From a virus: a stretch of 64,000 nt of DNA. The stretch's first letter is position 1. Every line of letters begins with the position of its first letter. The stretch lies in IMG/VR virus record IMGVR_UViG_3300043499_000238, positions 47,141 through 111,140 of that record. One strand, written 5' to 3'. The notes beneath the pieces were generated by a model. That model did no database searches. It worked only from the letters and a program-made list of their open reading frames with translations, and was not told the origin of the DNA. Position numbers and translations under genes: made by a program. This document shows, in pieces, positions 2,667 to 20,649 of this stretch.

Positions 2667-3701
2667 TCAGCCTGCGTCGCCGGTCGCCGCGGCCGAGTCG
2701 GCCGTGGTGTTGTCCTGCGTCTGCGTGACCGTCAACGTCGCGGTGTTGGTGGCCGTGGCCGCCCCCGTCGTGATGTTGTTGCTCGCCGTCGAGGCGTTGG
2801 TCCCGGTGTTGGTGTTGCCACCGCTGCTGGTCCCACCCGCACCACCGGTCGCCTCGGCGGCATCGCTGCCGCTGGCGGCCGACGCACCCGAGCCGCCGGA
2901 GGCGGACGAGGTCGAGTCGCTGGACGAGTCGCTGGTGTGGGCGCTGCCGCCGTCGGCGTCGCTGTCGGCGTCCTGCGACGCCGAGTTGCTCTGGTTCACC
3001 GTGTTGGTCGCCGTGTTGCCGCCCGAGTTGGACGAGGCGTCCTGGCTCACCGAAGCGTGCACGGTGGCGTCCTGGTAGACGCTCGCCGAAGCGCTGGCCT
3101 CCGCACCGGTCGGCGTCGAGGACGCCGCGGTGGCGCCGCCAGCCGAGGAGGCCGACGTGGCCGCCCCACCGGTCGCCGTCGCCGTGTTGGTGTTGTCGTT
3201 GGTCTGCTCCTGCGAGATGCCGCCGTTGACGGTGTTGCCCGCCGTGGCCGCACCGGCTGCGATGCCGTTGGTGGCGCCGCTCGTGTTGCCGCCCGTGTTG
3301 CCGTTGGTGGCATCGCTGCCGCCGCCGACTCCGCCGGTCGCCTTCACGCCGCCGCCGCCCTCGGCCGCCGAGGCGCCCGAGCCGGAAGCCGCCGAGACCT
3401 CGTCCTCGGAGCGGTCGCTCGAAGAAGCGTCCCCACCGTTGGCGTCGGAGTTGGACTCCTGGTCGGCGCTGTTGGACTGGTCGACGTAGTTGTACTCGAC
3501 GTTGTCCCCGGTGTTGGTGTACGCCTTCTGGCACAGCTCGACGTCGGCGACGGCCGACTGAGTCACGCTGGAGCTGGCGTCCGAGACGGCCGGATCGGGA
3601 GCCGGTGCCTCTTCGGCGGACGCCGCAGCGCCGACACCGATGGTCAACCCCGCCGAAGCGAGGGTGGCGAGAACGACTCGCCGGGTCTTGGAACGAAGCA
3701 T
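2667..3701 (-). CDS. Secreted low-complexity A/S/G/T/N/Q repeat protein
   Basis: 344-aa ORF, GGAGG RBS, signal peptide ending AASA, NTGxN repeats, almost no aromatic residues. Confidence 0.85.
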   Translation of the reverse strand: MLRSKTRRVVLATLASAGLTIGVGAAASAEEAPAPDPAVSDASSSVTQSAVADVELCQKAYTNTGDNVEYNYVDQSNSADQESNSDANGGDASSSDRSEDEVSAASGSGASAAEGGGGVKATGGVGGGSDATNGNTGGNTSGATNGIAAGAATAGNTVNGGISQEQTNDNTNTATATGGAATSASSAGGATAASSTPTGAEASASASVYQDATVHASVSQDASSNSGGNTATNTVNQSNSASQDADSDADGGSAHTSDSSSDSTSSASGGSGASAASGSDAAEATGGAGGTSSGGNTNTGTNASTASNNITTGAATATNTATLTVTQTQDNTTADSAAATGDAG

Positions 3702-3823
3702 TGTGCCTCCTGGTTCAGGGCGTTACCGCCGTTTGCTGCGCCGAGGGGTGCCTGAGTGGAAGCTGACCCGGTTACCCGCCGTCCCCGCCACACCGTGTTC
3801 CTCTCGACTCGGAGCGCAACCTA
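3702..3823 (-). promoter_or_regulatory. Putative -10 (TAGGTT) and ~110-nt structured 5' leader of the secreted-protein operon
   Basis: TAGGTT at 3823-3818; nested stems with two GUAA tetraloops (3769-3778, 3719-3730). Confidence 0.45.
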
Positions 3824-10134: not shown

Positions 10135-11721
10135 GTGACGGCAGCCGTACGCGAGATCGCCGAAGAGCGATACGAGGAGTACGTCGAGGAGCAAGAGGAG
10201 GCCGAGGACTTCGTTGAGGTCGACCCCGACTCCGAGGAGTTCATCCACGAGCTGACGATGCGCTGCATGGTCTTCATGGAGGCGCTGGCCGAGATACAGC
10301 TCCACCCCTATCAGAAGGATCTGGCGTACCGCACGATCCAGTCGGTGTTGCTCAACGACGGCGCCGAGATCACCGCCCTGTGGGCACGCCAGTCCGGCAA
10401 ATCGACAGCGCTGGCGTCGATCATCGCGACGATGATGGTGCTGCTGCCCAAGTTGGCGGCCGCCTATCCCGAGCACTTCCCCCAGTTCGCTCGTGGGTTC
10501 CTCGTCGGAGTGTTTGCTCCGACTGAGGAGCAGGCGTACACGGTGTGGTCGAAGATCCACGACATCCTCACCTGCAAGCGCGGCCGCGAGATCCTCAGCG
10601 ACGAGGACATCGAGGACGTGCCGCAGAAGGAAGGCTCCAAGGTCAAGGTCGTCCGCCTCGTCAACAGCGGCTCGCTGTGCCGCATGCAGACCGCCAACCC
10701 GAAGGCGCAGATCGAGTCGAAGACGTACCACTTCGTGCTCCTCGATGAGAGCCAGGACTGCGACTCGGAGAAGGCACGCAAGTCGATCTTCCCGATGCTC
10801 GCCTCGACCAACGGCACCAAGGTGTTCACCGGCACCTGCTCGCGCAAGCGCAACTTCTTCTATGACGCCATCCAGGCCAACAAGCGCAAGGCGCTCCGTC
10901 GAGGCTCCCGGCAGGACCACTTCCAGTACAACTGGAAGGTCGTCGTCAAGTTCAACAGCTTCTACAAGAAGTACATCGCTGGGGAGAAGGAGCGGCTCGG
11001 CGAGGACAGTGACGAGTTCCGCCTGAGCTACGCATGCGAGTGGTTGCTGGAGTCGGGGATGTTCGTGACCGAGGAGTCGTTGGACTTCCTTGGCGATCCC
11101 GGCATGGAGATCCAGCCGTGGTTCGTGGTCGACAAGTGCGTTGCGGGAATCGACGTGGCGCGCACCAAGGACTCGACCGTCGTCACCGTGATGTGGGTCG
11201 ACTGGAACAACCCCGACCCGTACGGCTACTGCCAGCACCGCATCCTCAACTGGCTGGAGATCCACAACAAGCTGTGGGAGCAGCAGTACGCACAGATCAT
11301 CGAGTTCCTGTCGCACTACAACGTCGCGATCGTCGGTGTCGACGGTCAGGGCATGGGCCAGCCCGTCGGCGAGCGCATCGCCCACGAGATGCCGTGGGTC
11401 GACGTGCGCATCCTCAGCTCGGACCAGTCCACCCAGGAGAAGCGCTGGAAGCGGCTCAAGGCGTTGATCGAGCGGCGCATGTTCATCTACCCGGCCGGTC
11501 GCAAGACCAAGAGGCTGCGCTGCTACAAGCGCTTCCGGCTGCAGTTCGAGGAGCTGGAGACGGCGTACAGCGGCAAGTACATGCTCGCCGCAGCGCCCGA
11601 GGCGGTCAACGCCTTCGATGACTACTGCGACTCGGCGGCCCTCGGCGTGGCCGTCACCGAGGACGAGGACTTCGGCGTGGTGCAGGTGGTCGACTCACCG
11701 TTCCATGGTCGCCACCGGTAA
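10135..11721 (+). CDS. terL: Terminase large subunit
   Basis: Walker A ARQSGKST, Walker B FVLLDESQ, coupling FTGT, RNase H-like AGIDVA..DST and DDYCDS. Confidence 0.95.
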   Translation: MTAAVREIAEERYEEYVEEQEEAEDFVEVDPDSEEFIHELTMRCMVFMEALAEIQLHPYQKDLAYRTIQSVLLNDGAEITALWARQSGKSTALASIIATMMVLLPKLAAAYPEHFPQFARGFLVGVFAPTEEQAYTVWSKIHDILTCKRGREILSDEDIEDVPQKEGSKVKVVRLVNSGSLCRMQTANPKAQIESKTYHFVLLDESQDCDSEKARKSIFPMLASTNGTKVFTGTCSRKRNFFYDAIQANKRKALRRGSRQDHFQYNWKVVVKFNSFYKKYIAGEKERLGEDSDEFRLSYACEWLLESGMFVTEESLDFLGDPGMEIQPWFVVDKCVAGIDVARTKDSTVVTVMWVDWNNPDPYGYCQHRILNWLEIHNKLWEQQYAQIIEFLSHYNVAIVGVDGQGMGQPVGERIAHEMPWVDVRILSSDQSTQEKRWKRLKALIERRMFIYPAGRKTKRLRCYKRFRLQFEELETAYSGKYMLAAAPEAVNAFDDYCDSAALGVAVTEDEDFGVVQVVDSPFHGRHR

Positions 11722-11745
11722 CGGGGCGGGAACTACGCTGGGACC

Positions 11746-12147
11746 ATGACGATTGCACCGAACCCGCTCTTCCCCGAGCGGACGTCCCAGGCGTACGAGC
11801 TGGCCTTCGCTGCGAACCCTGCGGGCAACCGCGGGGACATGCGGTTCGAGGAGGGCATCGGCACCGACACTGACGTCCCCAACGACTTCGTGCGTGGAGC
11901 GTTCATGGACCCGACCTCGGTTCCCGGGCGGCTCAGCCACAACAACCCCGACATGGTCTACAAGAGCGCCGAGGAGACGATGCGCGAGCGCGCACACGTC
12001 GGCAGCGCTTCGTGGATCGAGGCGCCAGCGATGCTGAGCGACTTCGTCGCCGGAGCGGGCGTCGGCCAGACGCCGCCCTCCTTCGAGATGATCCGCGTGC
12101 CCGGCACCTACATGTACCGCCGGGCGCCAACGGTCATTGACGACTGA
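11746..12147 (+). CDS. Hypothetical head-module protein
   Basis: TACGCT-6-ATG; well-formed 133-aa ORF. Confidence 0.75.
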   Translation: MTIAPNPLFPERTSQAYELAFAANPAGNRGDMRFEEGIGTDTDVPNDFVRGAFMDPTSVPGRLSHNNPDMVYKSAEETMRERAHVGSASWIEAPAMLSDFVAGAGVGQTPPSFEMIRVPGTYMYRRAPTVIDD

Positions 12148-12153
12148 GCTGCC

Positions 12154-12714
12154 GTGGCGCGCTCGTACAAGTCAGCGCTGCCGACGTGGTCGACGTACAC
12201 GCCGCACGTCTCCCCGCTCGGGATCCAGGCGCCTGTGAACCAGGAGACCATCTGGCGTAATCGAGCGCGCCAGTTCTCGCCTGCTGGCATCCACGGCGAG
12301 ATGAACCGCGCCATGCTCGGGATCCAGGCACAGGTGAAGGGCACGGGCGCCGGGTACGCCGCTGTGCAGACGGTTGGCCACACGCCACTCATCGACGCCG
12401 CACAGGGCTTCGCCAACCAGCGCCGCGACGCCCAGCGCACCTGGGCGGCGCACATGCAGGACTCGCTCCAGCGTCAGGCGCCCGAGGACATGGTCGCCCC
12501 CGGCGAGGCGCCTCCGCAGGAGGAGACGCAGGTGCGTGCCGCACGTACCGCACCCGACACCGTCAACCCCGCCGACGTGCAGACCCAGGACGCCGCTCGC
12601 GGCTCCGCCGAGCAGATGGTCGGAGGCGTGCTGCGCTCGAAGCGCTCCGGCCCGTCCACCATCCCCGTGTCGATGACCCAGTCGGGCATCTTCGTACCCA
12701 CGAGAGGCAGATAG
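12154..12714 (+). CDS. Hypothetical protein
   Basis: ORF in operon, A/Q-rich. Confidence 0.65.
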   Translation: MARSYKSALPTWSTYTPHVSPLGIQAPVNQETIWRNRARQFSPAGIHGEMNRAMLGIQAQVKGTGAGYAAVQTVGHTPLIDAAQGFANQRRDAQRTWAAHMQDSLQRQAPEDMVAPGEAPPQEETQVRAARTAPDTVNPADVQTQDAARGSAEQMVGGVLRSKRSGPSTIPVSMTQSGIFVPTRGR

Positions 12715-12716
12715 CC

Positions 12717-12872
12717 ATGGCAGATCAGGACTACGTCGGGCAGCTCGCCCCCGGTGAAGAGGCGGCCGGTGGGCCGATCGATGAGCCGTACCAGGGCTTC
12801 GCTCCGTACATGCACCAGGGCCAGTCGATGAACGAGGCGTTCGCCGAGGGCGCTCAGGCCGGTCGCTACTGA
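12717..12872 (+). CDS. 51-aa hypothetical protein
   Basis: GAGG RBS; MADQDYVGQLAPGEEAAGG...GRY. Confidence 0.55.
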   Translation: MADQDYVGQLAPGEEAAGGPIDEPYQGFAPYMHQGQSMNEAFAEGAQAGRY

Positions 12873-12911
12873 TCGACCCGGCCCGATAGGGCCGTCGCTT
12901 ACGCTGGGCGT

Positions 12912-13394
12912 GTGGACACCAACTGGGGTATCAGTCTCGTCCGCACCATCGTTGTTCCGCTCTCGATCGGCTTGCTCGTCTCGTTGCTGATCCCCTTCGG
13001 TGGCGGCTCTTCCTCCTTCGTCGGGATCGCAAGAGTCGCCACCATCTTCTCGATCGCCGTGGCGTGGTATGTCTGCGCCCGTCTGGCCCAGCGCGCACGC
13101 CCGCAGCTCGGCTTCCTCCTCGGAGTCTCTGTCCGACCTCGGTACGGAGAGGACGGTGAACACGAGCTAGCGCCGTCCCTCCGACGCACGCTCGTGCCGC
13201 TCGCCGTCGCCACGGCGGTCGGGTGCTTGGTTGCGGCGTTCATCGGGGGCGCCACGCCTGCACTGGCCGTCGTGGCGGCCGCACTTACGTACTACGGAAG
13301 CCTCCGCTACATCGAGGTCTACGCCCGTCCCTACTCGACAGCTCGGGACGTCGCTGGGTGGTTCCTCGGCGCCCGAGCTGTCCCCTACTACTGA
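12912..13394 (+). CDS. Membrane protein with internal tandem duplication (holin-like unit x2)
   Basis: Two halves SLxRT(I/L)V..P...Y...R...G(F/W)xLG...PxY; four hydrophobic segments. Confidence 0.7.
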   Translation: MDTNWGISLVRTIVVPLSIGLLVSLLIPFGGGSSSFVGIARVATIFSIAVAWYVCARLAQRARPQLGFLLGVSVRPRYGEDGEHELAPSLRRTLVPLAVATAVGCLVAAFIGGATPALAVVAAALTYYGSLRYIEVYARPYSTARDVAGWFLGARAVPYY

Positions 13395-13403
13395 GGAGTC
13401 GAC

Positions 13404-14858
13404 GTGCCGAGGAAGAAGGCCGCAGCAGCGCCAGGACCGATGTCACCGGACGAGCTGCGCGCCGCATACATCCCCGGCGTGGGGCCGCAGGGATCGATCA
13501 ACGGCGTCAAGCCGCACCGCACCGCCGCCGGTCGTGAGAAGCAGCGGGCCGCCCGTGAGGAGATGCACCGCACGATCCCGCAGCAGGAGCTGCCCGAGTC
13601 GGGCGAGGCCGTGCGCATGCCCAACCCGAAGTCAGCCAAGTTCCACAAGCCAGCCGTGATGAGCGAGGCCGAGTCGGTGCAGGCGGCCAACGCTCGTGCG
13701 TCTCGCGCTGCGTGGGAGCAGACGCCCGAGGGCAAGGCGCGCACCGCCAACATGAGCGACCTGATGGGCGCCGATGCCAAGGGGATGTCGATCCGCCAGG
13801 TGTACGGAGCCAAGAAGGCACCGACGCGCGACCCCGGCCCGGTGACCGGTCAGCTACAGCTCCCCGGCATGGCCGACCCCCACGCAGCTCCGCGCCCGGC
13901 GCGCTGGGAGGAGCTGTCGGAGGCCAACCGCAGCCACGCCCTCAAGGGGCTGGCGCTTCACGGCACGAGCATCGAGCAGATGATCGGCGACTATGGAGCG
14001 CAGATCGACCAGGCCCACCACCGCGCCTGGCAGGCCGGTGCCGAGCGGCCCTTCTCGCAGGAGTTCTACAGCGTCGGTGAACCACGCCAGGTGATCAGCC
14101 AGTCGGCGCACGAGCTGGGCATCCCCGAGCAGATCCACTCGCACATGAACGCCCTCACGTCGCCGAACACCAAGTTCAGCCAGCGCACCAAGGAAGGCGA
14201 GACGGTCTACCCCAACAACCGCGCCGCCGAGCACGCAGTGCGTCACGTCCAGCAGGGTGGTGATCCGGCCGACCTGACCAACGCCTTCTCGACCACCGGC
14301 ATGGAGCGCTGGAAGGGCGAGCACGCCCAGGGCTACGAGAAGAACATGATCAAGGCGGCGTCGTCGTACCAGCAGCACGAGGCTGGCGTTCCTCCGGCGG
14401 AGTGGGTGACCGGCAAGAAGGGCGAGGGTCCGTTCGAGTCATCGCCCAAGACCGGCCCGTACTCCAACTCGTGGAACGACTCGCACCCGCAGTTCTTCGT
14501 CAGCGACGTGCACTCCGGTGGCGGCGGCTTCCTCCCCCACCTCTCATCGGACAAGCCGGTGCCGATGGAGGGCGGTCAGATCAAGCGCACCGCCTCGGGC
14601 AAGAAGGCGTCGGTGAAGAGCGAGCGCGAGGTCGGCATCGAGCGCACGCCGTTCTTCCATGCCGCTGCCGACTACGCAGCGCGCCAGGCGCACGAGGCCC
14701 GCGGCATCGCTCACGTACGGGAAGGCCAGGCGGTGCAGTGGGGCGAGGAGCAACTGCAGCGCGGTGAGGCCGGGATGCGCGGCGCCCCCAAGCAGCGCGA
14801 CGTCTACCCGGCGGCGGTCAACACCAAGCAGTTCAACCACCCGTCGCTGTTCGACTGA
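13404..14858 (+). CDS. 484-aa protein with possible HhH/glycosylase-like C-terminal domain
   Basis: Motif series ALTSP..N..A / PKT.PY / VSDVH / QAVQW resembles phage HhH-like families; GAGGAG RBS. Confidence 0.5.
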   Translation: MPRKKAAAAPGPMSPDELRAAYIPGVGPQGSINGVKPHRTAAGREKQRAAREEMHRTIPQQELPESGEAVRMPNPKSAKFHKPAVMSEAESVQAANARASRAAWEQTPEGKARTANMSDLMGADAKGMSIRQVYGAKKAPTRDPGPVTGQLQLPGMADPHAAPRPARWEELSEANRSHALKGLALHGTSIEQMIGDYGAQIDQAHHRAWQAGAERPFSQEFYSVGEPRQVISQSAHELGIPEQIHSHMNALTSPNTKFSQRTKEGETVYPNNRAAEHAVRHVQQGGDPADLTNAFSTTGMERWKGEHAQGYEKNMIKAASSYQQHEAGVPPAEWVTGKKGEGPFESSPKTGPYSNSWNDSHPQFFVSDVHSGGGGFLPHLSSDKPVPMEGGQIKRTASGKKASVKSEREVGIERTPFFHAAADYAARQAHEARGIAHVREGQAVQWGEEQLQRGEAGMRGAPKQRDVYPAAVNTKQFNHPSLFD

Positions 14859-14868
14859 GGAGACCACG

Positions 14869-15060
14869 ATGAGCAACTACGAGAACGAGCGGGAGATGTG
14901 GGACGACATCGCCCGCAACGATCGCCCGAGCGGCCGCATGATCCGTCGGGTCGGTGTGCACCCCAGCAACTTCGGCAAGGGACCGGCGCTGCAGAAGAAC
15001 GCGAGCGGAAGTGGGTACCACGTCAAGGGCGCCCCCGGCTTCGAGGACGATCCCGACTGA
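14869..15060 (+). CDS. Hypothetical protein
   Basis: GAGGAG RBS, MSNYENEREMW... Confidence 0.65.
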   Translation: MSNYENEREMWDDIARNDRPSGRMIRRVGVHPSNFGKGPALQKNASGSGYHVKGAPGFEDDPD

Positions 15061-15091
15061 TGGCCAGTTACCACTACCCAAGGGGAAGACA

Positions 15092-15310
15092 ATGAAGCAG
15101 CTCGCAACCGTCATGCTCGCCGAGATCATGGACTCGCCGGACTTCGCCGAGATCATGTTCCTCGTGGCGTTCATCCTGTTCGTCATCGAGGTCGTGCGTC
15201 TCGCCGTCGGCCGCGGCTCGGCGTGGGACTTCCACTGGATCCTCGTCGTCGCCGGTCTCGCCTGCATCTCTCTCGGGCTGCTCGCCCTACCGACCGGCGC
15301 AGCACCGTGA
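15092..15310 (+). CDS. Small 2-TM membrane protein
   Basis: Two hydrophobic segments, AGGGGA RBS. Confidence 0.65.
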   Translation: MKQLATVMLAEIMDSPDFAEIMFLVAFILFVIEVVRLAVGRGSAWDFHWILVVAGLACISLGLLALPTGAAP

Positions 15311-15417
15311 CGCCAGCCGTGCTGTCGGCGATCCTCGCTGATGGCATCTATGTCGGCGGCGGCTTCCTGCTGCTGGTGCTCGTCATCATCCTGATCGTCA
15401 TCCTGCTGCGGAGATAG
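15307..15417 (+). CDS. 36-aa single-TM peptide
   Basis: GTGA overlap; YVGGGFLLLVLVIILIVILLRR. Confidence 0.6.
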   Translation: MTPAVLSAILADGIYVGGGFLLLVLVIILIVILLRR

Positions 15418-15419
15418 CG

Positions 15420-15635
15420 ATGGCCGCCCACGATCATCTCGGCGCCCAGTTCGGTGTCGGCGACACCGTGCACGTACCAGGCCACGGGCCGGTCACCGTC
15501 GAGTCGATGAACAAGCGCTACTTCTCCGGCACCACGGCGTCCGGTGAGCGTCTCGGTCAGACCGGCATCGGTCTGGCCGCCGGGCAGGGGATGCGTGGCG
15601 GCACCCCGTGGCGGGTCGAGAGAGGCGCCGAGTAG
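15420..15635 (+). CDS. Small SH3/KOW-like protein with N-terminal DHLGAQF tag
   Basis: MAAHDHLGAQFGVGDTVHVPGHGPVTVESM. Confidence 0.6.
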   Translation: MAAHDHLGAQFGVGDTVHVPGHGPVTVESMNKRYFSGTTASGERLGQTGIGLAAGQGMRGGTPWRVERGAE

Positions 15636-15638
15636 CTC

Positions 15639-16433
15639 GTGACGATCCGAGGCCGTATCTACCGAGGGGAGGTGCGCCACGCCGTTCCGACGTACCAGCA
15701 CCCCGACCCAGCGGCGCATGCGGCCGAGGATCCCGAGGGCTTCCTCCACCAGTGGATGCAGCCGCACTACCCGTACCCGAAGGGCTGGACCGGCGACGCT
15801 CCCACCGTCGGCCAGCACTGGACGCGCTCGCCGCAGAGCATCCCCGAGCGCTTCATCGAGCCGGTGCTGCTGCGCCCGCAGCCGGGTGTGCCGATGGGCA
15901 AGCGTGAGCAGACCGCCGTGATGCGCCGGGAGGCGACCGAGCAGGACACGGGTGGCCCGGGCTACGGCATGCCCGGCCACGAAGAGCACCAGGAGATGAT
16001 GCGCAAGTACGCGGCGCATGCCGACCGAGCTGACCGTCAGGGCATCAACACGTACCACGATCTCTCCGGCGGCGACCCGGACCGCCCGGGAGCGGCCAAG
16101 CCGTACAAGATGGCCGTGGTGTGGGAGGGCCAGCACCATGAAGCTGCCGAGCAAGGCACCAACTACGAGGACGAGCTGAACATCCCCATGGGTGAGCACG
16201 TCACCGTCACTGGTGCGCGCATCTACGTACCGAAGCCAGGCGTGGAGCACGACTTCCGGGCGCGCCACCCGTCGGTGTTCACGCCCGAGGAGCACGCCCA
16301 CGCACGGGCCGACGTGATCACTCGATCGGCGTACAGCCACATCGACCCCCACTCGTCTATCCCTTGGAGCCGGATCCAGTTCGAGAACGCTCAGCAGCTC
16401 AAAGTCGATCGCTACCGGGGAGGGTCGCGCTGA
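15639..16433 (+). CDS. Putative ADP-ribosyltransferase (R...ExE type)
   Basis: IYRG strand, GQHWTRS, YEDELNIPMGEHVTVTG (ExE). Confidence 0.6.
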   Translation: MTIRGRIYRGEVRHAVPTYQHPDPAAHAAEDPEGFLHQWMQPHYPYPKGWTGDAPTVGQHWTRSPQSIPERFIEPVLLRPQPGVPMGKREQTAVMRREATEQDTGGPGYGMPGHEEHQEMMRKYAAHADRADRQGINTYHDLSGGDPDRPGAAKPYKMAVVWEGQHHEAAEQGTNYEDELNIPMGEHVTVTGARIYVPKPGVEHDFRARHPSVFTPEEHAHARADVITRSAYSHIDPHSSIPWSRIQFENAQQLKVDRYRGGSR

Positions 16434-16447
16434 GCTACAGTGATCTT

Positions 16448-16816
16448 GAACGTTGGCGTGAAGAAGGGGACGAGTTATGCGACAACCGGCTCGCCCTGGA
16501 GTAGTCGCTGACGACGGGGTCGGGCCGCAGGCACGCAGGTCCGGTTGGTCCGACCCCGACCATTCGATGGAGGGCACGTACTGGTGATCTCGATCGGTGC
16601 TGGTGAAGCACGGGCACTTGCCCCTGACGCTTTCCTTGGATGCGACGTACAGCCTTCTGGTTCGCCGGACTGGCCGAGGCGGGACACCATGGTCTGTCGT
16701 TCAGGGAGAGAGACCCGGATGGATCCAGAGACCGACGAGGGCATCGGGTAGGCGTTCACGGACGTTGAGAAGTGCGGGGGGACCGTGATCCTCCCAATGC
16801 GGCGACGTGCCCTCCC
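16448..16816 (+). ncRNA. Candidate ~370-nt structured non-coding RNA
   Basis: Own TACAGT box (16436-16441) not followed by a start codon; perfect 11-bp long-range stem 16569-16579/16805-16815; 12-bp stem 16515-16526/16547-16558; several small hairpins incl. a UUCG loop; no credible ORF. Confidence 0.6.
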
Positions 16817-16844
16817 TCAATCCAGCGAGCAGTACGGTTGGTCC

Positions 16845-17057
16845 ATGGCCAAGCACGAGCACATGACGCCGGTCGACGCCGTCACCCACGCCGCGCTCAT
16901 CGGGCACTTGATCCGCGGCACGGTGGTCGAGGGCAAGAGCTTCGTGGAGGCACACGCCGATGCCCGCAAGGCTGTTGGCGCCGGAGCGGAGAGCCACGTC
17001 CGTCACGCCGGTCCTGCGATCGATGAGGCGCTCTACCCGTCGTGGGCGCAGCCATAG
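16845..17057 (+). CDS. Hypothetical His-rich protein
   Basis: TACGGT-6-ATG; MAKHEHMTPVD... Confidence 0.65.
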   Translation: MAKHEHMTPVDAVTHAALIGHLIRGTVVEGKSFVEAHADARKAVGAGAESHVRHAGPAIDEALYPSWAQP

Positions 17058-17093
17058 CTCCCCCGTGATCGGGGCCAGATCTACGCTGGGGCC

Positions 17094-17561
17094 ATGACGA
17101 CCCCTGCTCCCGTCCTCACGATCACGCCCGCCTCCGTGAACCGGACGGCCGCCGATCTCACCCCCACCGTGAACCTCGCCGACACGGCGACGCACACGCC
17201 CGTCGCCACCGGCCGCTCGTTCCGGTTCGACGCCGTTGCCGTGAAGGCGACCGTCGGCGCTACCGGAGCAGGCATCTCCTCCGCAGTGCCGTACCCCGTC
17301 AACCTTGCCGCCGGTACTCGCCAGGGCAGCGTCGCCACGACGAATACCGACGGCACCGGCACGAGCGCCAACGTTGCGCTCACCGTGACCGACGCAGTCG
17401 CCACGCAGTACGCCACGCCGGTCTACGTCGAGAACAACAAGAACGTCAGCCGCTGGTTGCCCGAGCAGCTCCCCAACGAGTACCGCGACCCCACGCTGTC
17501 GACGCCGGGGCTGCCCACGGCGACGGGCGTGTACAACGCCCGTACCCGCGGCGTCATCTGA
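17094..17561 (+). CDS. Hypothetical Thr/Ala-rich beta protein (possible virion decoration)
   Basis: TACGCT-6-ATG; Ig-like composition. Confidence 0.65.
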   Translation: MTTPAPVLTITPASVNRTAADLTPTVNLADTATHTPVATGRSFRFDAVAVKATVGATGAGISSAVPYPVNLAAGTRQGSVATTNTDGTGTSANVALTVTDAVATQYATPVYVENNKNVSRWLPEQLPNEYRDPTLSTPGLPTATGVYNARTRGVI

Positions 17562-17562
17562 C

Positions 17563-18660
17563 GTGCCTCGGGTGGCCGAGCCACCTGGGCAGGCTGGGTC
17601 CACCCGTCTAGCCCGCGAGCACGTCGACCGTACGCGCGACCTGACAGCAGCGGCCGCTGCGCCGGGCGACACCAACGCTGCTGTCGACGCTCACCAGCAC
17701 GCCGTCAGTCGTGTGCAGGACCACGCCGGGCGCATGGGCGTCAACCTCGTTGACCTCCCGCCGATGAACCCCAAGCCGTTGCGGCCGGGACAGGTGAGCC
17801 AAGGCACGCTGTGGGACTCCCGCTCGATGAAGCCGTCGCCGGAGCACCAGTGGGCGGCGCACGGCTACTCCCCCGAGCGCCGCGACGCCATCGCCGCCGC
17901 GATCCCCAAGGTGGGTGTCTCGTCTTCCTTCTCGTACCCCGGCGGTAGCACGGGCGTGCCGTACACGGGCGAGGTCACTGGCGGTGTGTATCCGGCGATC
18001 GGTCAAGTCGGCGGCAAGCGCAAGAACCAGGTGGCTGCGACACGCAACTCGGTGGTCGACATCCTCGCTCGATCGACGGCGCCGTTGGGCGACATCGTCA
18101 ACGCCACGCCGGACATCAAGGTGCAGCCGATGGCGAGAGCGGCCGGTCAGCACCGCACGAAGATGCGCGGGTGGGAGGACGAGCCGTTCGTCCGTGAGAT
18201 CAAGCTCCACCCCGGTGGCGGCCCGGCGCGCACCCGTGCCCAGGTCGAGCACACCGTGCTCCACGAGTTCGGGCACAACGTCGACTTCGAGCGTGACCGT
18301 AAAGCCTTCACCACCAACGCACGATTCAACCTCCCGGCGGTGGAGGGGTTCGCCGAGGGCTACGCCGCCAAGCACCGGGTGGGGCGGCGCAACGAGCCAC
18401 CCGTTCCGTACTCCGGCGTTGCCGCCTACAAGAGCATGCACGGTCGCTCCTCGTTCGGTGAGAACTTCGAGCGTGCAAGCGGGCGATCGCTCCCTCAGGC
18501 GATGGGTGCGCAGAAGCATCTCGGTGAGCAGTGGTCGCAGGGCAAGCTCTTCACCGGATCGAGCGAGACCGGTTTCGTCAAGGATGAGAACGAGCCACTC
18601 CCCACGATCTCGAATGCCGAGTGGGACCACCTCACCGGGCGCAACCGTGCCCGCCGTTGA
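17563..18660 (+). CDS. Zincin-type metallopeptidase-like protein
   Basis: TVLHEFGHNVD (HExxH) and downstream VEGFAEGYA. Confidence 0.7.
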   Translation: MPRVAEPPGQAGSTRLAREHVDRTRDLTAAAAAPGDTNAAVDAHQHAVSRVQDHAGRMGVNLVDLPPMNPKPLRPGQVSQGTLWDSRSMKPSPEHQWAAHGYSPERRDAIAAAIPKVGVSSSFSYPGGSTGVPYTGEVTGGVYPAIGQVGGKRKNQVAATRNSVVDILARSTAPLGDIVNATPDIKVQPMARAAGQHRTKMRGWEDEPFVREIKLHPGGGPARTRAQVEHTVLHEFGHNVDFERDRKAFTTNARFNLPAVEGFAEGYAAKHRVGRRNEPPVPYSGVAAYKSMHGRSSFGENFERASGRSLPQAMGAQKHLGEQWSQGKLFTGSSETGFVKDENEPLPTISNAEWDHLTGRNRARR

Positions 18661-18961
18661 CCATCTCAACGGCGAGCTGTTCCACGGCACCGCTCACCCG
18701 TTCGAGCCGGGCGACATCGTCAGCCCCACCGACACCGAGCACACCGAGTTCCCGACGGCGTGGGCGACACCACGGATGGACGAGGCCAACCAGATCGCAC
18801 GGGCCAAGGTGCGTCGGCACAACCGTCGCAACCCCGACGACCCAGCCACCGAGCACGTCTTCGCCGTCGAGCACATGAGCAAGCCGGTCGATGTGTGGGG
18901 ACGAGCCAACGTCGCCGCAGACCCCGTTGGCTTCCGCGTACTACGTAGGGTTGGTCCGTGA
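18647..18961 (+). CDS. Small Arr-like ADP-ribosyltransferase-fold protein
   Basis: LFHGTAHPFEPGDIVSP...AWAT...HVFAVE...GFRVLRRV; 3' part of ORF 17915-18961, GTG start. Confidence 0.6.
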   Translation: MPAVDHLNGELFHGTAHPFEPGDIVSPTDTEHTEFPTAWATPRMDEANQIARAKVRRHNRRNPDDPATEHVFAVEHMSKPVDVWGRANVAADPVGFRVLRRVGP

Positions 18962-20649
18962 GCATCGCCTTCTGGCCTCCGAGCTACCGCGCCGGTACCT
19001 CGGACCTTGCCATCCAGATCTCGCCGCTCGGCCTGGTCGACCTCAGCAACGAGGAGATGGAGGTCCACGGCATCCGCCTCAGCAGGTACTCGCTCTACTG
19101 GGCGCACTACCTCGGCCACCACTGGGCGTACCGCCGTGAGGTCGGCGAGCCGCAGTTCACGTTCAACTACGTGCGGGCACTGAGCGACTACCTCACGAAC
19201 TTCACCTTCGGCCGTGGCGTCACCTTCCAGTCGCCGCCAGCGACCGCCGCCATCGTGCCCACACTCCTCAAGCGAGTGTGGGAGGGCGACAACCGCAAGG
19301 CCGCACTGCTGTGGGAGATGGGACAGATCGCCTCGGTAACCGGCGACCTCTTCGTCAAGGTGGCGTACGAAGACCCGTTCGTTGACCCGGCGGGACGGGT
19401 CCATCCTGGCCGGGTTCGGATACTCCCTCTGAACCCGGCCAACTGCTTCCCGCAATGGCACGAGCACGACCGCACACGGCTGCTCAGCTTCAAGCTCAAG
19501 TATCGCTTCTTCTCCACCGACCAGACCGGCACGCGCATCGTCAATACCTACGTCGAGCGCGTCACCGACAACGGCATCGAGGAGTACGTCAACGACGAGC
19601 TGATCTCGGCCCGCCCCAACCCGCTGGGCGTGATCCCGATCGTCTACATCCCCAACATCATGGTGAGCGGCTCACCGTGGGGACTGAGCGACATCGGCGA
19701 GGTGATCCCGCTCAACCGTGAGTACAACGAGAAGGCGATCGAGATCTCCGACATCGTCAACTACCACTCCGCTCCCGTCACGGTGATCACCGGGGCCAAG
19801 GTGCCGCAGTTGGAGAAGGGTGCGCGCAAGACGTGGTTCCTGCCCAAGGACGCCAAGGTCGAGACTCTGCAGTCCACCTGGCAGCTAGAGCACATGCTCG
19901 GCTACATGGAGGTCGTCAAGCGGGGCATGCACGAGATGACCGGCGTGCCGGAGCAAGCGCTCGGGCAGGTGCAGCCGATCAGCAACACCAGCGGCGTGGC
20001 GTTGGCGATCCAGTACGCGCCAACGATGCAGCGCTTCCGCATGAAGAAGAACAACTTCGAGACGGGCTTCCAACAGATCAACGAGCTGGTGCTCTTGACG
20101 CTGTTCCAGAAGGAACCCATGTCGATGCAGTTCAACCCCATGGAGGATCTCGCCCCCAAGCCGGGACAGCTCACAGCGCTCGATCCCGCTGACCCCAACA
20201 GCTACGAGACGTCGGTCTACTGGCCCGAGCCACTGCCGGTCGACGTGCTCGTCAAGCTCAACGAGATCGCACAGAAGATGCAGCTCGGCATCGAGTCCAA
20301 GCGCGGTGCGCTCGCCGACCTCGGTGAGGAGTTCCCCGACGCCAAGCTCGCCGAGATCTTCGCTGAGATCCTCGAAGACTCCAAGGATCAGGGTGCGTTG
20401 CAGCTCCAGAACAGCGCCATCCAGTCGGCGATCGTTGCGCTCACCGGCATGGTGCCCCAGGGCGGCGAGGTGGCCGACACCGGACAGCAGGGTGCCGACA
20501 GCGGCTCGCCTGACGCTGGTGGTACCGGCATCATGCCTGGTCTCGTGCTCGATCAGAACACGATGAACCTCATGAACGAGCTGACGACTCGGGCGTACCT
20601 GCCTCGCATGGGACAGTTCAGGAATCCCTCCAACGCAGGCATCGAGTAG
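18958..20649 (+). CDS. Portal protein (SPP1 gp6-like)
   Basis: 563 aa; NPLGVIPIVYIPN, WGLSDI, SNTSGVAL; position before scaffold and capsid. Confidence 0.9.
   Translation: MSIAFWPPSYRAGTSDLAIQISPLGLVDLSNEEMEVHGIRLSRYSLYWAHYLGHHWAYRREVGEPQFTFNYVRALSDYLTNFTFGRGVTFQSPPATAAIVPTLLKRVWEGDNRKAALLWEMGQIASVTGDLFVKVAYEDPFVDPAGRVHPGRVRILPLNPANCFPQWHEHDRTRLLSFKLKYRFFSTDQTGTRIVNTYVERVTDNGIEEYVNDELISARPNPLGVIPIVYIPNIMVSGSPWGLSDIGEVIPLNREYNEKAIEISDIVNYHSAPVTVITGAKVPQLEKGARKTWFLPKDAKVETLQSTWQLEHMLGYMEVVKRGMHEMTGVPEQALGQVQPISNTSGVALAIQYAPTMQRFRMKKNNFETGFQQINELVLLTLFQKEPMSMQFNPMEDLAPKPGQLTALDPADPNSYETSVYWPEPLPVDVLVKLNEIAQKMQLGIESKRGALADLGEEFPDAKLAEIFAEILEDSKDQGALQLQNSAIQSAIVALTGMVPQGGEVADTGQQGADSGSPDAGGTGIMPGLVLDQNTMNLMNELTTRAYLPRMGQFRNPSNAGIE

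Follow-up and report, generated by a model that had tools for sequence, protein, structure and literature searches.

We found that a ~400-bp interval in the structural region of an actinophage genome is an insertion/deletion polymorphism, the genes on its two sides lying next to each other in the closest relatives of this phage, and that its 3' part, a core of 253 nt which we term domain B, is a conserved + strand structure. Judging from the comparison with its one homologue, the element may well be an 'RNA moron' of a soil actinophage of ~111 kb, an accessory gene for a non-coding RNA with transcription of its own; it is present in two lineages.

The DNA analysed here (the window, 64,000 nucleotides) comprises bases 47141-111140 of an IMG/VR virus record, which is 111,140 bp long and has 66% G+C. 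The gene for the terminase large subunit, terL, lies at 10135-11721 and the portal gene at 18958-20649, followed by the scaffold and major head genes. Relatives of the portal protein with 54-58% identity sit in prophages of Streptomyces, Actinomadura, Saccharothrix and Kitasatospora, and we therefore regard the phage as an actinophage. The stretch from terL to the portal gene (11722-18957) is a mosaic cargo island with breakpoints at gene boundaries, and the small genes in this 7-kb gap gave no family matches. On its left, the interval adjoins a putative ADP-ribosyltransferase-like (ART-like) gene of 264 aa (15639-16433), and on its right g70, a gene of 70 aa with its ATG at 16845. An earlier note, made from the letters alone, had placed a structured RNA between terL and portal gene; both do flank the interval, but at distances of 4.7 kb and 2.1 kb. 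The ART-like protein itself has no match in Pfam or PHROGs, and has 16 relatives in the protein database, a metagenomic family of at least 16. Many residues are invariant in this family, e.g., R9 G10 E11, H60 W61 S64 and E177 D178 E179.

The loci of related phages, gathered by pattern scans, delimit the element. In the closest relatives, L002 and L006, whose ART-like protein is ~75% identical, the ATG of g70 follows ~45 nt after the ART-like stop codon, with the TACGGT box of the window in front of it; both phages lack the ~400-bp interval. The window thus holds an insertion between genes that adjoin in related phages, as is characteristic of morons. In more distant relatives (L003, L004 and L005), the portal gene comes directly after the ART-like gene. 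Since the interval is missing from close relatives, it appears to be dispensable cargo in a mosaic island. L002 and L006 possess g70 and g155, and g365 is absent from them. The g70 gene (16845-17057) encodes 70 aa in the window, compared with 132 aa for the homologous ORF of L002 (4841-5239).

The sole other lineage with the element is represented by L015 and L016, two contigs from different metagenomes that are identical here. L015 aligns to 16434-16846 at 67-69% identity and remains collinear through g70, g155, g365 and the portal gene. Directly upstream of its element lies an unrelated 209-aa ORF, which together with an unrelated 422-aa ORF takes the place of the ART-like gene. In L015, g70 has a 21-nt insertion, and the C-terminal half of the g70 protein is variable. 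The idea that the RNA might be a partner of the ART-like gene did not survive this comparison: L002-L011 have the gene without the RNA, and L015 has the RNA behind a different gene.

Searches for further copies returned only the window and L015/L016, whether by blastn against 50,697 phage records, by exact and gapped patterns (four in viral contigs, one in genome contigs), or by nhmmer and a covariance model of domain B (R1) applied to loci of related phages and prophages totalling ~1 Mb. The same model found a single copy and no second one in the rest of the phage genome, and no further copy in 151 Streptomycetaceae genomes. BLAST against 401 Actinomycetes genomes gave only GC-rich matches of 30-50 nt (79-100% identity, in 17 of the 401 genomes), about a dozen of them falling in 16480-16542. 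We rejected these as homologues, as they are of mixed orientation, contain indels and lack flanking similarity, and look compositional. Matches of 19-21 nt in L094-L096 were likewise set aside as compositional, being of mixed orientation and without similarity in their flanks.

The features of the element, all on the + strand, are as follows.
16431-16453, + strand: block of 23 nt, 23/23 identical between the window and L015, while the upstream genes differ.
16460-16468, + strand: Shine-Dalgarno-like run GAAGAAGGG, identical in L015, 8 nt before the ATG at 16477.
16477-16587, + strand: ORF1, 36 codons (33 codons and a TTG start in L015).
16515-16558, + strand: GC hairpin with a 12-bp stem, extendable; L015 has a 12-bp hairpin of unrelated sequence just before its domain B.
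16566-16818, + strand: domain B, the conserved structured core of 253 nt, defined by consensus fold, substitutions, identity and model R1.
16569-16579, + strand: 5' strand of P1, 11 bp with 16805-16815; the pair C16575-G16809 is U-A in L015.
16581-16603, + strand: 5' strands of P2/P3 (16581-86, 16589-92, 16594-98, 16600-03), pairing with 16725-16747.
16584-16751, + strand: ORF2, GTG start, 55 codons; its TAG stop is kept in L015.
16656-16669, + strand: apical hairpin TCTGG-TTCG-CCGGA (16656-60/16665-69), kept in L015 in a slightly shifted register.
16725-16747, + strand: 3' strands of P2/P3, pairing with 16581-16603.
16773-16801, + strand: 3' branch, consisting of 16773-75/16799-801 and the hairpin 16776-82/16789-95, with compensatory changes.
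16805-16815, + strand: 3' strand of P1, pairing with 16569-16579.
16833-16847, + strand: leaderless-type promoter TACGGT and ATG of g70, the right limit of the element, conserved in relatives without it.

The left end of the element carries a promoter-type box. The TACAGT at 16436-16441 and the G six bases downstream (G16448), both pointed out earlier, are in place, and the likeness to neighbouring leaderless genes holds: TACAGT is of the TAnnnT type of this phage and shows no change in the L015 copy. At least eight genes (10135, 11746, 12912, 16845, 17094, 18958, 22864, 26082), terL and the portal gene among them, have a TAnnnT hexamer exactly 12 bases before their ATG or GTG, in most cases TACGCT or TACGGT with GG after it. 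TAnnnT at -12 is the leaderless arrangement known from actinobacteria, and this layout suggests that many late genes of the phage are individually promoted and leaderless. Genes 13404, 15420, 20720, 21664 and 24123 have ordinary Shine-Dalgarno sequences instead of TAnnnT. TACAGT at 16436-41 fits the pattern, yet it is followed by G16448 and not by a start codon. The 23-nt block around it, which is unique within the window, holds the stop codon of the upstream gene, TACAGT and the predicted start region at G16448. As homology with L015 begins exactly at this stop codon and block, the left boundary of the element is sharply defined and includes the promoter-type box. On the other side, a promoter proper to the next gene had also been claimed, and 16833-38 does read TACGGT, separated by six bases from the ATG of g70.

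A sigma-70 scan detected nothing, and a terminator scan of 16200-17200 found no U-tract terminator, so that the 3' end of the RNA is a guess and read-through into g70 is possible. The 12-bp stem 16515-26/16547-58 is present as described, with one G-T pair. This hairpin might be a terminator or a variable stem; as an intrinsic terminator it lacks the appropriate tail, since ACCATTCGATGG, which follows it, is not a U-tract. In L015, the apical hairpin of the RNA domain (3686-3703) is followed by GTCTTGTTGC and scores as terminator-like; the window copy has no such T-run.

Domain B is closed by P1, for which the complementarity of GGAGGGCACGT (16569-79) and ACGTGCCCTCC (16805-15) proved perfect, with the inverted repeat extending to 14 nt at 93%. 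Inside P1, P2/P3, which is among the supported helices, joins the internal blocks of highest conservation, GGTGATCTCG and CGAGGGCATCGG. Compensatory changes back three of the helices proposed by eye, namely the closing stem, the UUCG hairpin and GGGGGGA/TCCTCCC (16776-82/16789-95). In the apical hairpin, G-C is replaced by C-G and U-G by C-G in L015, and of the 10 bp of the 3' branch, three carry double changes that compensate each other and two carry changes compatible with wobble pairing. Other proposed pairings did not withstand the comparison. The GTGCT/AGCAC helix is broken in L015, and TGACGCTT/AGGCGTTCA would form a pseudoknot whose duplex energy does not exceed that of shuffles (p 0.13, 0.27). 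GTCG-CTGA-CGAC can be located at 16504-15, but part of it is lost in a 10-nt deletion in L015. Direct repeats resembling the promoter and start of g70 (16539-51, 16601-20) are not kept in L015 and were dismissed as chance. Of the multi-domain fold that had been envisaged, the 3' ~250 nt are thus kept by compensatory changes, whereas the 5' third is not conserved.

Taken singly, the window copy does not fold unusually well, contrary to what had been expected of it: the minimum free energy (MFE) of its 411 nt is -172.6 kcal/mol, against -171.5 +/- 6.5 kcal/mol for dinucleotide shuffles (z -0.16). Folding no better than dinucleotide shuffles had been named beforehand as an outcome that would speak against the element, and it is what the window copy, on its own, shows. 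The single-sequence z-scores of the window are -0.95 for the - strand and -1.14 for domain B alone; those of the L015 copy are -3.24 for the whole and -4.05 for domain B. The RNAalifold consensus of the whole 411 nt reaches z -1.7 (p 0.06) against column-shuffled alignments. Column shuffles of this length already yield ~97 pairs and ~10 'compensatory' pairs, and apparent covariation is therefore cheap at 66% G+C with two sequences.

Domain B, by contrast with its own column shuffles, stands out. Its consensus energy is -85.8 kcal/mol, whereas alignments with shuffled columns have -65 +/- 5; two runs gave z -3.8 and -4.2, and no shuffle was as stable (0/271 and 0/580). The structure conservation index (SCI) is 0.71 vs 0.60 +/- 0.05, and double changes number 9 vs 5 +/- 1.9, in a single pairwise comparison in which shuffles also give ~65 pairs. 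The consensus of the - strand has a z of only -1.1 compared with -4.2 for the + strand; the signal thus depends on G-U pairs and belongs to a + strand RNA, not to a DNA palindrome. The stretch 16434-16565 has no consensus structure support (z +0.6), apart from the hairpin that is kept in place with a different sequence. Domain B is accordingly more stable than shuffled alignments on one strand.

In a less circular test, the MFE structure of the window's domain B was held fixed and the substitutions of L015 were scored on it. Among the changed pairs, 23 were kept and 14 broken (null 15.4/23.3, p 0.001), and 10 of the 14 pairs changed on both sides can still pair (null 2.5). The reverse test, in which the MFE structure of L015 was applied to the window, was not significant; L015 has extra stable helices of its own. 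Double compensatory pairs thus amount to 9-10 against a null of 2.5-5, in a set of only two distinct sequences, a count that suggests covariation but falls short of proof.

Sequence constraint follows the same division. At 4-fold degenerate sites, g70, g155 and g365 are 60% identical between the two phages (n=266) and the portal gene 62%. In the 5' third of the element (16434-16568), identity is 58.5%, the neutral level, with the 23-nt block and GAAGAAGGG as exceptions. Domain B (16566-16818) reaches 72% vs the 60% of 4-fold sites (binomial p 3e-5), with 77% in paired and 62% in unpaired columns.

These data have to be weighed against other readings of the element. It is possible, if unlikely, that it acts in cis, as a structured leader or insulator in a longer mRNA, either in the 3' UTR of the upstream gene or in a 5' leader of g70-g155-g365. 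It would then control read-through or translation; ribosomes on ORF1, on reaching the 5' strand of P1, could for instance determine if domain B is able to fold, with the hairpin at 16515-58 as a possible terminator. Consistent with such a role, the element lies directly upstream of the same cassette in both phages, the Shine-Dalgarno-like run is conserved, ORF1 runs into the P1 strand, the GTGA overlap between the two ORFs is kept, the hairpin holds its place with a different sequence, and the terminator scan finds none after P1. However, the whole segment as far as the portal gene is of common descent, which accounts for the linkage to the cassette, and the ORF1 peptide is not conserved. Moreover, g70 keeps its own TAnnnT-N6-ATG promoter, also in relatives without the element, and on a read-through RNA it would be without a Shine-Dalgarno sequence.

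We attach a similarly low probability to a non-functional spacer, either DNA left behind by mosaic recombination or the remains of a gene that decayed within a hypervariable island, in which structure and covariation would be a GC-rich chance product of one pairwise comparison. The z-scores of the window copy (-0.16 and -1.14), the absence of the element from the closest relatives, the divergence of domain A at the neutral rate with many indels, the ~65 pairs and ~5 double changes of null alignments and the non-significant reverse substitution test are all what a spacer would give. They leave unexplained why domain B exceeds 4-fold sites in conservation (p 3e-5), with the excess concentrated in paired columns, why its consensus fold reaches z -4.2 on the + strand only, why 10/14 double changes are compensatory, and why a perfect 23-nt block with a promoter-type box has been retained.

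The interval 16434-16844 had been described as lacking a credible gene, and indels, periodicity and protein searches agree that it is non-coding. Between the window and L015 there are nine indels of 1, 10, 1, 2, 1, 1, 2, 1 and 1 nt, none a multiple of 3, and substitutions by position mod 3 are 45/44/33, without codon periodicity; in the flanking genes, indels are 21, 6, 3 and 33 nt long and changes are in excess at third positions. Neither a GC3 plot, which showed no steady coding frame, nor six-frame reading, nor tblastx against all loci gave a coding signal, and the ORFs of the interval had no match in Pfam, PHROGs (six ORFs) or 5.8 billion protein clusters. The check for a protein-coding signal in any frame, by frame, third positions and GC3, was thus negative. 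An N-terminal extension of g70 from GTG 16785 was also rejected: its frame is open in both phages, yet third positions change least there and the relatives start at the ATG.

That gene callers missed two small, translationally coupled protein genes, ORF1 (36 aa) and ORF2 (55 aa), is against this background highly improbable, although some features speak for it. GAAGAAGGG lies 8 nt before ATG 16477 and GGAGGG 9 nt before GTG 16584, the ORF1 stop overlaps this GTG as GTGA, the two phages share the starts and stops (L015 3515-3785), this overlap and the TAG included, and the indels within each ORF add up to a multiple of 3. The middles of the ORFs, however, differ in reading frame between the two phages, and yet nucleotide blocks there are conserved; the ORF1 region has indels of 10, 1 and 2 nt, and its peptide is not preserved. 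Third positions show no excess and change least in 16701-16844, GC3 follows no steady coding frame, the protein searches found no homologue, and open frames of such lengths are common by chance at 66% GC. ORF1 and ORF2 are probably not protein genes. The ORF1 stop lies inside the 5' strand of P1/P2, where translation could compete with folding of the RNA domain.

Mycobacteriophages harbour the mobile elements MPME1 and MPME2, and the inverted repeat 16566-79/16805-18 and the presence/absence polymorphism among relatives recall a small, non-autonomous, MITE-like DNA element bounded by an 11-14-bp repeat; this can practically be discarded, as the element is single-copy in the 111-kb genome with none elsewhere, no target-site duplication flanks the repeat, the repeat is internal to an inserted segment (16434-16832) that exceeds the repeat-bounded part, and the matched C-to-T/G-to-A change in the arms and the G-U tolerance on the + strand only point to selection on RNA pairing.

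The RNA moron, our preferred reading, lies outside described families. The earlier impression that no known RNA family is involved was borne out by Rfam 15, in which none of 4227 models matched the whole window at the gathering threshold; at E up to 10, only chance matches of 8-15 bits appeared, and these differed between the two phages. ARAGORN predicted no tRNA or tmRNA gene in the window. The element nevertheless appears to be of a familiar kind, related in type to phage-borne structured RNAs and to morons, although so far in two lineages. Phage morons, a concept that comes from lambdoid phages, are independent transcription units between two genes of the late operon. The element resembles them in its position between genes that adjoin in close relatives, its own promoter-type box, its dispensability and its location in a cargo-rich island of the structural region. 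It differs in that its cargo is apparently RNA and not protein, in the negative terminator scan, and in being known from sequence alone.

Like GOLLD, ROOL and similar Rfam families, the element is multi-helical, several hundred nt long, phage-borne and found by comparative analysis; unlike them, it has no Rfam match, is smaller (~250-nt core), and occurs in two lineages of high-GC actinophages. It shares with 6S RNA and the actinobacterial Ms1 a long irregular hairpin-like arm, a stable closing stem and an actinobacterial setting, but gives no covariance-model match, has no evident central bubble resembling an open promoter, and possesses an extra 3' branch. In lambdoid phages, the lambda PR' 6S transcript and HK022 put are late-promoter transcripts or cis-acting antitermination RNAs. 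As in these, a putative promoter, immediately followed by a structured leader and a strong hairpin, is located upstream of structural genes; in sequence and structure there is no similarity, and late transcription does not require the element, since close relatives that share the late genes lack it. Phage-encoded regulatory small RNAs have been reviewed (PMC12197685). Like them, the element is phage-borne and non-coding, with its own putative promoter and a presumed effect on host or phage expression. From typical base-pairing small RNAs it differs in being much longer and more structured, and no conserved target complementarity was identified.

As an RNA moron, the element would be transcribed by host RNA polymerase from near G16448 into an RNA of ~370 nt that ends after the closing stem. 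The 5' third would then be a fast-evolving leader with a stable hairpin, and the 253-nt 3' domain, with its 11-bp closing stem, its long irregular UUCG-capped arm and its 3' branch, the working part. This domain might act in trans during infection, most likely by protein binding, e.g., as a decoy or as a modulator that helps in taking over the host or in countering its defences; such a role would match the enzyme-like cargo genes around it. The packaging, virion or decoy functions put forward in the earlier note are guesses. A bolder and rather doubtful extension is that domain B is the first member of a new family of structured RNAs of ~250 nt that actinophages carry as mobile cargo and that bind a host protein, e.g., a defence nuclease, RNA polymerase or a ribosome-associated factor, and thereby neutralise it. 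If this were true, an RNA-based counter-defence or takeover gene would stand among the enzyme-like cargo between terminase and portal gene.

To our knowledge, hardly any non-coding RNAs have been mapped in actinobacterial phages, and what is looked for in cargo islands is mostly proteins alone. As a two-lineage candidate, the element is of value as a well-delimited target, with a putative promoter, a core domain and a covariance model (R1). It may also serve as a test case for the notion that intergenic 'gaps' in high-GC phages can hide genes. An RNA moron beside host-modifying, enzyme-like genes would provide a handle on RNA-based takeover or counter-defence in Streptomyces-type hosts.
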